A stretch of DNA of 39,270 nucleotides from Escherichia phage 285P. The notes under the pieces were generated by a model, which was not told where the DNA came from, searched no databases, and saw nothing but the letters and a program-made list of their open reading frames with translations. Numbering within the stretch: position 1 is the stretch's first letter; every line of letters begins with the position of its first letter. Location of the stretch: sequence record NC_015249.1; one strand, given 5' to 3'. Positions 10,869-14,088 of the stretch are shown piece by piece. The position numbers were made by a program, and so were the translations under genes.

Positions 10869-12820
<1,952 letters not shown>

Positions 12821-12822
12821 AT

Positions 12823-12845
12823 CAATACAACTCACTAATGGGACA
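12823..12845 (+). promoter_or_regulatory. T7-type promoter (phi4.3-like) CAATACAACTCACTAATGGGACA
   Basis: Seen: followed by 5' hairpin GGGACA..TGTTCCC. Confidence 0.65.
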
Positions 12846-12888
12846 GACACTCTGTTCCCACTTATCAATCCACTTAAGGAGAATCACA

Positions 12889-13101
12889 ATGTTTAAATTC
12901 ATCAACACTCTTGGTAAGCTGGTAGTTAAAATGTACTTCCGTGAAGCTAAACGTCTGAACGACAAGGCACGTAAGGATGCAGAACAGGCTCAACGCTTGG
13001 CGAAACGGGCACGTCTACTGTCTGAAGATGCAAGTGCTGGCGTTACGTCTGCTGCTAAGATTGCAGCGAAAGCAACCGACCTGAACAAGTTCTTCCTGTA
13101 A
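12889..13101 (+). CDS. 4.3: gene 4.3 protein
   Basis: 70 aa (MFKFINTLGKLVVKMYFREAKRLNDKARKDA...LNKFFL), resembles T7 gp4.3 as recalled (same length). Confidence 0.7.
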   Translation: MFKFINTLGKLVVKMYFREAKRLNDKARKDAEQAQRLAKRARLLSEDASAGVTSAAKIAAKATDLNKFFL

Positions 13102-13280
13102 TGGTTACGATAACCCTTGTGCTCACTCTGATAACTGTGAGCGGACAAACAATAAGTCAAGTCCCTATCACGGCACCAAAGGCTGAGGCATACGAGATAT
13201 GCGAACAGCAAGGGCGCTCGTGGTCTAAGGACTTGATGAAGAACGGCAGGGTTTTCACTGCCAACTACAACTGTATCTAA
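13101..13280 (+). CDS. small ORF with N-terminal hydrophobic segment and two Cys (59 aa)
   Basis: Hand-translated (MVTITLVLTLITVSGQTISQ...CEQQGRS...NYNCI); start overlaps the 4.3 stop (TAATG); no obvious SD. Confidence 0.3.
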   Translation: MVTITLVLTLITVSGQTISQVPITAPKAEAYEICEQQGRSWSKDLMKNGRVFTANYNCI

Positions 13281-13294
13281 TAGGAGTACATAAC

Positions 13295-13597
13295 ATGGCT
13301 ATTAAATTCCCCGGCAACACAATCCGTCTGTCTGACACCATCGACCAGTATGCTCGTCGAGTGCACATCAACGTTCGCAATGGCAAGGTAACTCTGGTCT
13401 ACCGTTGGAAAGACCACAAGTCCACCAAGGCTCACACACAGCGTGTGACTCTGGATGATACACAGGCAGGTCGTCTGCTGGCTTCCGTTGCTGTAGCTGC
13501 TACCGTGGCTGTAGGTGAAGACAATGTTCGTCAGGTTCTGCTGGGTAAGACCGTGGAGTCTGAGGGAAACATGCTTGCGGACAAGTGTGAAGAGTAA
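13295..13597 (+). CDS. hypothetical protein (gene 4.5 position)
   Basis: 100-aa ORF with AGGAG RBS; no firm homolog recalled. Confidence 0.6.
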   Translation: MAIKFPGNTIRLSDTIDQYARRVHINVRNGKVTLVYRWKDHKSTKAHTQRVTLDDTQAGRLLASVAVAATVAVGEDNVRQVLLGKTVESEGNMLADKCEE

Positions 13598-13598
13598 G

Positions 13599-13643
13599 AG
13601 TTAAACTAAAGGTCATCTTAACGGGTGGCCTTCGTGATTAACT
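13599..13643 (+). promoter_or_regulatory. conserved RNase III-type hairpin element, copy 3 (R4.7-like)
   Basis: Seen: AGTTAAACTAAAGGTCATCTTAACGGGTGGCCTTCGTGATTAACT. Confidence 0.55.
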
Positions 13644-13655
13644 TTTGTATGAAAT

Positions 13656-13678
13656 CTATTCAACTCACTAATGGGAGA
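13656..13678 (+). promoter_or_regulatory. T7-type promoter (phi4.7-like) CTATTCAACTCACTAATGGGAGA
   Basis: Seen: good -10..+6, weaker upstream half. Confidence 0.55.
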
Positions 13679-13686
13679 ACAACACT

Positions 13687-14088
13687 ATGCGTAATCGTAA
13701 TGTAATCGAAGCTGAAATCGCTAAACTGGAAGCTGAACTGGCAGACATCAAGGAATACGAATGTGCTCGTGACTCCGCTGTCCACATCCTGAAGAACTTA
13801 GGGTGGACTCGTGTTCGCGGTAAGTGGGTGCAACCAGTGAATCGTCCTGACCTGAAGGTATTCGATAAGGACACCATGACCCACATTAAGGCTGGTGACT
13901 TCTGCACATCAACTGAGACATCCTCTCTATGGTACGTGCGCACGGTCGCTGGCAACATCTGCTGGTGCTCACGAGTGTCCCGCATTGCTCCTAATGGAAC
14001 CTTAGTGACCAGCAACAACGTTGGAATCAAAGCTGAGAACCTGAAGGTAATCAACGTGAAAGACTATATGGGATACACCCATCGTTAA
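13687..14088 (+). CDS. hypothetical protein (gene 4.7 position)
   Basis: 133-aa ORF directly after the R4.7-like element and promoter; T7 gp4.7 is of similar size. Confidence 0.65.
   Translation: MRNRNVIEAEIAKLEAELADIKEYECARDSAVHILKNLGWTRVRGKWVQPVNRPDLKVFDKDTMTHIKAGDFCTSTETSSLWYVRTVAGNICWCSRVSRIAPNGTLVTSNNVGIKAENLKVINVKDYMGYTHR

Follow-up and report, generated by a model that had tools for sequence, protein, structure and literature searches.

The 59-codon open reading frame (ORF) lying between genes 4.3 and 4.5 of Escherichia phage 285P is almost certainly a genuine protein-coding gene, and its product is a member of an already deposited, uncharacterized protein family. We analyzed the ORF within a DNA stretch of 39,270 nucleotides (sequence record NC_015249.1), referred to here as the window. 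The window represents the genome of a T7-like phage from the BA14 group (genus Berlinvirus), and its positions 12850 to 13650 share 99% identity with Enterobacter phage PZJ0206 and 94% identity with BA14. The gene is, moreover, very likely optional and horizontally exchanged. As a whole, we somewhat favor an explanation in which it is a mobile accessory coding sequence, translationally coupled to gene 4.3, whose product is cytoplasmic and binds a host or defense factor.

The ORF, its family and its expression

Read directly from the sequence, the ORF extends on the plus strand from an ATG start to a TAA stop (positions 13101 to 13280) and comprises 59 codons, in exact agreement with the translation given in an earlier, sequence-only reading of this DNA; AEAYEICEQQGR is an example peptide of the product. 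Its two cysteine codons, which that reading had also noted, were located at 13200-13202 (C34) and 13272-13274 (C58). The upstream cistron is gene 4.3 (12889-13101, plus strand; 70 aa), identified by matches to Pfam PF17565 (DUF5471; E 1.3e-21) and PHROG 1950 (E 1.5e-31). Direct reading likewise confirmed that its TAA stop codon (13099-13101) overlaps the ATG of the ORF (13101-13103) in a plus-strand TAATG motif (13099-13103). The downstream cistron is gene 4.5 (13295-13597, plus strand; 100 aa; PF17574, E 3.7e-29; PHROG 2254), whose product falls into the Pfam TA_inhibitor family of T7 Gp4.5, a Lon/toxin-antitoxin inhibitor family. The GGAG Shine-Dalgarno motif of gene 4.5 (13283-13286, plus strand) forms the right-hand junction of the cassette, which reads TAA-TA-GGAGT.

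A length of 59 codons has no significance by itself, since the ORF list of the window contains many chance ORFs; it is conservation, together with the codon-position pattern of substitutions, that places this ORF beyond chance. The product matches the profile of PHROG 6794 with an E value of 1.9e-25, residues 1 to 59 aligning with positions 1 to 60 of 62. Identical proteins are found in GenBank (ACF15749.1, ACV32494.1, AGY36919.1 and AWY04262.1); the identical protein is annotated in phages BA14, FE44, S523 and PZJ0206, and a variant differing in one residue is annotated in BSP161. The BA14 entry (AS7_0023, ACF15749.1, "unknown product") represents the same gene, with an identical amino acid sequence in the same slot between genes 4.3 and 4.5. 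Annotation has skipped the gene in SPLA4, SEqdws-315, pO103 and others; pipelines that annotate nothing shorter than 60 aa overlook the ORF, and the annotation is missing from roughly one in three close relatives. The gene call is nevertheless of minor importance, the ORF being already present in GenBank and in PHROGs as a hypothetical protein.

Homologues were detected in 75 phage records by tblastn, and a profile search of 5.8 billion proteins returned 11 clusters at 90% identity, every one of them 59 to 62 aa long. At 40 to 70% identity, homologues occur in Przondovirus, in Kayfunavirus and in Slopekvirinae-like phages, and 14 residues are invariant (M1, T3, L6, L8, T9, L10, G15, I18, V21, C34, G38, W41, A54 and C58). 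Among them, the hypothetical proteins of 59 to 60 aa from Przondovirus (vB_Kp1, kpssk3) and Kayfunavirus (vB_EcoP_F, Vec13), with 49 to 57% identity, resemble the product of the window in length, Met1, both cysteines and the N-terminal motif; they differ in that their genes have their own Shine-Dalgarno motif, no TAATG overlap and no hairpin. An exhaustive, filter-free HMMER search of 1.84 billion representatives found nothing outside the family except P0005, a metagenomic protein of 437 aa that matched the ORF with an E value of 1e-7. We treated P0005 as a spurious homologue, the match being probably spurious because its score sums six weak stretches. This odd protein consists of about seven near-identical tandem repeats of 62 to 63 residues (…YPVTQMYTDSYTVCDGESW…).

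Substitutions in the ORF follow the pattern of a constrained protein. Values of dN/dS between pairs of alleles were mostly 0.03 to 0.15, with a maximum of 0.47, and pN/pS was 0.10 to 0.24 in frame 1, compared to values above 1, with 3 to 10 stop codons, in frames 2 and 3. All 9 of the 9 Berlinvirus-type alleles checked base by base were intact. Conservation of the frame across relatives, which had been put forward as a check on the ORF, was thus confirmed in every relative examined, including the alleles at 40 to 70% identity. We also considered and rejected an antisense ORF of 73 aa (12990-13211) and the remaining frames: there, substitutions are mostly nonsynonymous and relatives carry stop codons. 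No family covering the 59-aa ORF was found in Pfam, in NCBIfam or in the defense-protein library PADLOC. A literature search with the family's accession numbers, PHROG identifier and peptide strings found no paper, and a comparative study of PYps50T phages does not treat the locus.

The ORF apparently shares its transcription with its neighbors. A plus-strand match to the phage RNA polymerase promoter motif TACAACTCACTAATGGGA, equivalent to phi4.3, lies at 12826-12843; the window contains 12 such matches, against 0.04 expected by chance, and BA14 has a promoter phi4.3 annotated at the homologous place. The next phage promoter downstream is at 13659-13676 (phi4.7). Given these two promoter positions, gene 4.3, the 59-aa ORF and gene 4.5 make up one transcription unit. 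Between gene 4.3 and the ORF, neither a promoter nor a terminator was found by phage promoter matching or by a plus-strand scan for sigma-70 promoters and terminators. As a separate observation, a strong hairpin (-19 kcal/mol) is present at 13595-13647, between the stop codon of gene 4.5 and the phi4.7 promoter (13659-13676), the position of the R4.7 RNase III site in T7.

No Shine-Dalgarno motif was found upstream of the ATG of the window ORF, and translation therefore probably starts by termination-reinitiation coupling to gene 4.3. BA14 has TGATG where the window has TAATG. In the other lineages, AAGGAG or GAGG is found 4 to 9 nt 5' of the same Met1, which fixes the start codon of the ORF. 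We envisage that phage RNA polymerase starting at phi4.3 would produce one middle-gene mRNA carrying gene 4.3, the 59-aa ORF and gene 4.5, and that ribosomes terminating on gene 4.3 would probably restart at the overlapping TAATG. There is strong support for the earlier proposal of a real small coding sequence coupled to gene 4.3, the coupling itself being a probable reading of the nucleotide sequence.

Location and fold of the product

We consider it fairly likely that the product is a cytoplasmic globular protein rather than an exported one. The earlier reading had suggested a small exported or membrane peptide from the hydrophobic N terminus and the cysteine pair. This part of it is not supported: the hydrophobic run is short, no Lys or Arg precedes it, and the N terminus is conserved and predicted to form a beta-hairpin. 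In the alternative, which we regard as unlikely, the N terminus would serve as a Sec signal peptide or anchor the protein in the membrane. Either a mature peptide of 44 residues (cut after V-S-G15) or the anchored protein would then act in the envelope, with a C34-C58 disulfide, and could take part in processes such as superinfection exclusion or modification of the envelope.

Several features would fit such an exported product. Residues 1 to 26 are uncharged, and residues 2 to 13 are strongly hydrophobic (mean Kyte-Doolittle value of 1.9 to 2.5), so that a hydrophobic h-region of the ~7 to 15 residues expected for Sec export is present. The best 19-residue hydropathy mean of the window allele, 1.60, would be a borderline value for a membrane segment. 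Gly15 does not vary, and only the small or neutral residues V, A, G, S and T occur at position 13, which is compatible with the -3 and -1 positions of a signal peptidase site. A periplasmic disulfide would also be the easier explanation of the invariant cysteine pair, and AlphaFold confidence was not uniform between models.

However, the positively charged n-region of Sec signals was absent from all alleles read: none of the 15 has a Lys or Arg N-terminal to the hydrophobic run, and 12 of them, including 8 of the 9 A2 sequences, have neither residue anywhere in positions 1 to 26. The run itself covers about 12 residues, contains the invariant Thr3 and Thr9, and shows a period-2 alternation of hydrophobic residues with Thr, Val or Ile, as in a beta-strand. 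Hydropathy over 19 residues was 1.1 to 1.5 in most alleles (full span, 1.13 to 1.61), under the usual transmembrane threshold of a mean Kyte-Doolittle value of ~1.6 over ~19 residues. The mature part of a protein usually evolves more slowly than its signal peptide; here, pairwise identity was 69% in the N-terminal 25 columns versus 45% elsewhere. Finally, in both AlphaFold runs the predicted structure of residues 2 to 25 was a beta-hairpin and not a helix, with pLDDT at least as high as in the rest of the model.

The N-terminal beta-hairpin is reproducible in the predicted models, and the C-terminal half is uncertain. The best model of the first AlphaFold run (5 sequences; pLDDT 91) has strands at residues 2-12 and 15-25, a helix at 27-47 and a strand at 51-58; the other 4 of its 5 models reached a pLDDT of 51 to 63. 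The second run (11 sequences; pLDDT 77) gave the same N-terminal hairpin, a helix at 27-36 and two C-terminal strands, and the two runs differ over residues 37 to 58. For the homologues from vB_Kp168 and Vec13, independent models in BFVD superimposed on the model of the first run with TM scores of 0.98 and 0.88, respectively. The product would then be a compact alpha/beta protein of 59 residues, probably cytoplasmic, in which the hydrophobic N terminus is the first strand of a beta-hairpin packed on a helix. The gene may serve as a worked example that a hydrophobic N terminus and two cysteines need not mean a secreted protein, since here the pattern of conservation and the predicted fold indicate a buried beta-strand instead.

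Searches of the PDB by fold with both models yielded nothing significant (best E values of 0.13 to 0.17, to generic beta/alpha fragments), and searches by sequence profile gave insignificant matches only, such as a fimbrial protein with an E value of 0.55. A 58-aa hypothetical protein of Sinorhizobium phage phiM12 (S5M7I8) has a similar predicted fold (TM 0.68; Foldseek E 3e-3), with a sequence similarity between this phage group and the ORF that is below significance (33% over 55 aa; E about 1). The fold neighbors are other uncharacterized phage proteins of ~60 aa with a beta-beta-alpha-beta arrangement, and they carry no functional information. Separately, we observed a gene 4.2-like ORF (DUF5480/PHROG 5140) at 12398-12820 on the plus strand, which is out of frame with gene 4 and overlaps its 3' end. 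Read from its first ATG, a putative start codon, it has an N terminus that resembles a signal or lipoprotein sequence much more closely than the N terminus of the 59-aa ORF does.

Exchange among phages and possible function

The ORF is absent from most relatives, where its place is a clean, gene-sized gap. Empty sites were found in PYps50T and A7 (Berlinvirus), in Kpn30-P2 and K30 (Przondovirus) and in K1F (Kayfunavirus); only 38 Przondovirus-type records span the ORF, most Przondoviruses being without the gene. At the junction, PYps50T and A7 read CTGTAAGGAGTAACATAACATGG, where the window has CTGTA, the ORF and then TAGGAGTACATAACATGG. The reading of these ORF-less relatives thus defines a clean indel of ~181 bp at the TAAGGAGT motif.

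Between the window and L017, amino acid identity was 54 to 56% in the flanking genes and 90% in the ORF; between Kp1 and kpssk3, conversely, it was 93 to 99% in the flanks and 40% in the ORF, and the kpssk3 ORF shares 71% amino acid identity with the Kayfunavirus allele. The position of the gene varies as well. In Kayfunavirus it does not occupy the 4.3/4.5 junction but a slot directly 5' of gene 4, and metagenomic contigs related to Slopekvirinae phage PAS7 carry 63 to 68%-identical alleles in early small-gene arrays. These alleles (L019:2501-2680 and L020:2501-2689) lie outside Studiervirinae, among uncharacterized small genes and near a Phage_pRha gene.

Two copies of TAAGGAGTTCTTCTAA bracket the ORF in Kp1-type phages (L008:1140-1365 in vB_Kp1), as do two copies of TTAAGGAGTGACCAATG in vB_EcoP_F (L003:1140-1360), while the matching empty sites (L014/L016:~495-515 and L015:~595-615) contain a single copy of each repeat. 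These direct repeats of 16 to 17 bp are the target's own stretch, from the stop/Shine-Dalgarno to the ATG; they flank the Przondovirus and Kayfunavirus copies, whereas the window copy is without them. A transposon or homing origin of the repeats was considered and rejected, since they duplicate target sequence and the insert brings no enzyme: no transposase, recombinase or homing nuclease domain was found, and the insert consists of the 59-aa ORF alone.

The junction sequences rather suggest the insertion of a single gene, or its precise loss, by microhomology at TAAGGAGT and the ATG. Joining at the TAAGGAGT motif on the right-hand side and at the ATG on the left would yield the repeats and leave both genes translatable, and the flanking repeats would equally favor the precise loss of the gene. 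The gene would thus be dispensable and mobile, its alleles passing between phage lineages independently of their flanks and landing at gene junctions via recombination at the stop/Shine-Dalgarno (TAAGGAGT) and ATG punctuation. In this it illustrates the shuffling of single genes among T7-like phages. It resembles phage morons in being an optional single gene between conserved neighbors, with a patchy distribution and horizontal exchange. Classical temperate-phage morons carry their own promoter and terminator; the gene in the window, in contrast, has neither and would borrow the transcription of its host operon and, here, also its translation.

As to function, we tentatively propose, by analogy and as a possibility that falls somewhat short of probable, that the product is a binder of a host or defense factor. 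Many small T7 class I/II proteins act by binding and blocking host proteins; besides Gp4.5, small host-directed proteins of T7 include Gp2, Gp5.7 and Gp0.4. The Lon inhibitor Gp4.5 is comparable to the 59-aa product in size class and in sharing a middle-gene transcription unit with it. None of Gp4.5, Gp2, Gp5.7 and Gp0.4 shows sequence similarity or significant fold similarity to the product, and the analogy is one of action, not of membership. The proposal rests on the Gp4.5-family neighbor in the operon and on a gene that is optional and mobile and yet under strong purifying selection; the product of such a dispensable gene without enzymatic motifs would be expected to act by binding, probably blocking the host or host-defense protein that it binds. 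T7 gp4.3 and gp4.5 have been reported to counter a RADAR system (preprint 10.1101/2024.10.10.617714).

Alternatively, the gene might be a selfish or neutral passenger, spread by easy recombination at ribosome-binding-site junctions and of no host-directed benefit. The patchy distribution, the exchange uncoupled from the flanks and the target-derived repeats, which would also make loss easy, all agree with this. Strong purifying selection across alleles at 40 to 70% identity would, however, be unexpected for a neutral gene; moreover, the length is constant at 59 to 62 aa, 14 columns are invariant, and no recombinase or nuclease is encoded that could drive its own spread. We judge a mere passenger improbable.

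The preferred reading of a host- or defense-directed binder can also be extended, at a distinctly lower level of confidence. In this rather doubtful extension, the gene would be a free-moving single-gene counter-defense or host-takeover cassette of Autographiviridae that hops between intercistronic junctions (4.3/4.5, upstream of gene 4, and the Slopekvirinae early arrays) by microhomology at the universal TAAGGAGT...ATG punctuation. It would duplicate the ribosome-binding site of its target, so that cassette and downstream gene both stay translated, and the compact protein it encodes, rich in beta-structure, would act as an inhibitor of a host factor not yet known as a phage target. Being optional, under strong purifying selection, exchanged apart from its flanks and found at ribosome-binding-site junctions between target-derived repeats, the gene is a reasonable candidate for phage counter-defense or host-takeover screens.

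Two further points of gene content were noted in relatives. In pO103 (L007:~170-600), the gap between gene 4 and gene 4.3 contains an extra HNH-type endonuclease-like frame (...HTCDNPLCCNPSHL...), which the window is without, and BA14 has an annotated "2.8" gene between genes 4.7 and 5.

The inverted repeat within the ORF

The ORF contains a perfect 6-bp GCTCAC/GTGAGC inverted repeat with a 10-nt loop (13121-13126 and 13137-13142), exactly as previously described. It spans 13121-13142 on the plus strand, within codons 7 to 14, and is probably incidental. The earlier reading had raised the possibility that an RNA hairpin might be the functional element instead of a coding sequence, and had named as its test an interrupted frame with a conserved repeat. 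We found the opposite, a conserved frame without conservation of the hairpin, and the hairpin as a replacement for the coding sequence is thereby refuted.

More broadly, the GCUCAC-N10-GUGAGC hairpin could be a processing, pausing or translational signal, with the ORF incidental to it, or an additional, lineage-specific control of the start that has no Shine-Dalgarno motif; we consider this very improbable. In its favor, the hairpin has a minimum free energy of -10.2 kcal/mol (z score of -2.7 against shuffles) and is kept at this place by all Berlinvirus-type alleles, with a shifted and stronger register (-13 to -14 kcal/mol) in pO103 and L017. Perfect short inverted repeats are, furthermore, depleted ~2.5-fold genome-wide, and this stem is one of only 37. 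On the other hand, equal or better folding was observed for 23% of all 46-nt windows of this genome and for 13% of random sequences that recode this peptide synonymously, which places its stability within the genomic background. The structure is confined to Berlinvirus-type alleles: those of Przondovirus, Kayfunavirus, YSYH and the Slopekvirinae-like phages have no comparable hairpin (best folds of 0 to -6.8 kcal/mol) and keep the protein, encoding the same peptide motif with other codons. The hairpin starts 20 nt into the ORF and leaves the start codon uncovered, no Rfam match was found in 12600-13900, and the substitution pattern in the ORF frame is of the protein type.

The comparison with L017 also revealed an uneven distribution of differences along the ORF. 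Nucleotides 1 to 41 (window 13101-13141, L017:1501-1541) are identical, and the following 139 nt differ at 23 positions (16%), a distribution with a P value of about 0.004 under a uniform rate. L017 is a phage from metagenomic data, and in the flanking genes its identity to the window is only about 55%. The 41-nt identity and the shifted hairpins of pO103 and L017 may reflect a recombination breakpoint or, alternatively, a lineage-specific constraint on a 5' end without a Shine-Dalgarno motif.

Across the whole window (1-39270), perfect inverted repeats with loops of 3 to 12 nt were strongly depleted relative to dinucleotide-preserving shuffles: 267 were observed versus 383 +/- 20 for stems of 5 bp, 37 versus 94 +/- 10 for stems of 6 bp, and 5 versus 21.5 +/- 5.4 for stems of 7 bp. 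The region 13121-13450 holds a cluster of 3 of the 37 six-base-pair repeats.
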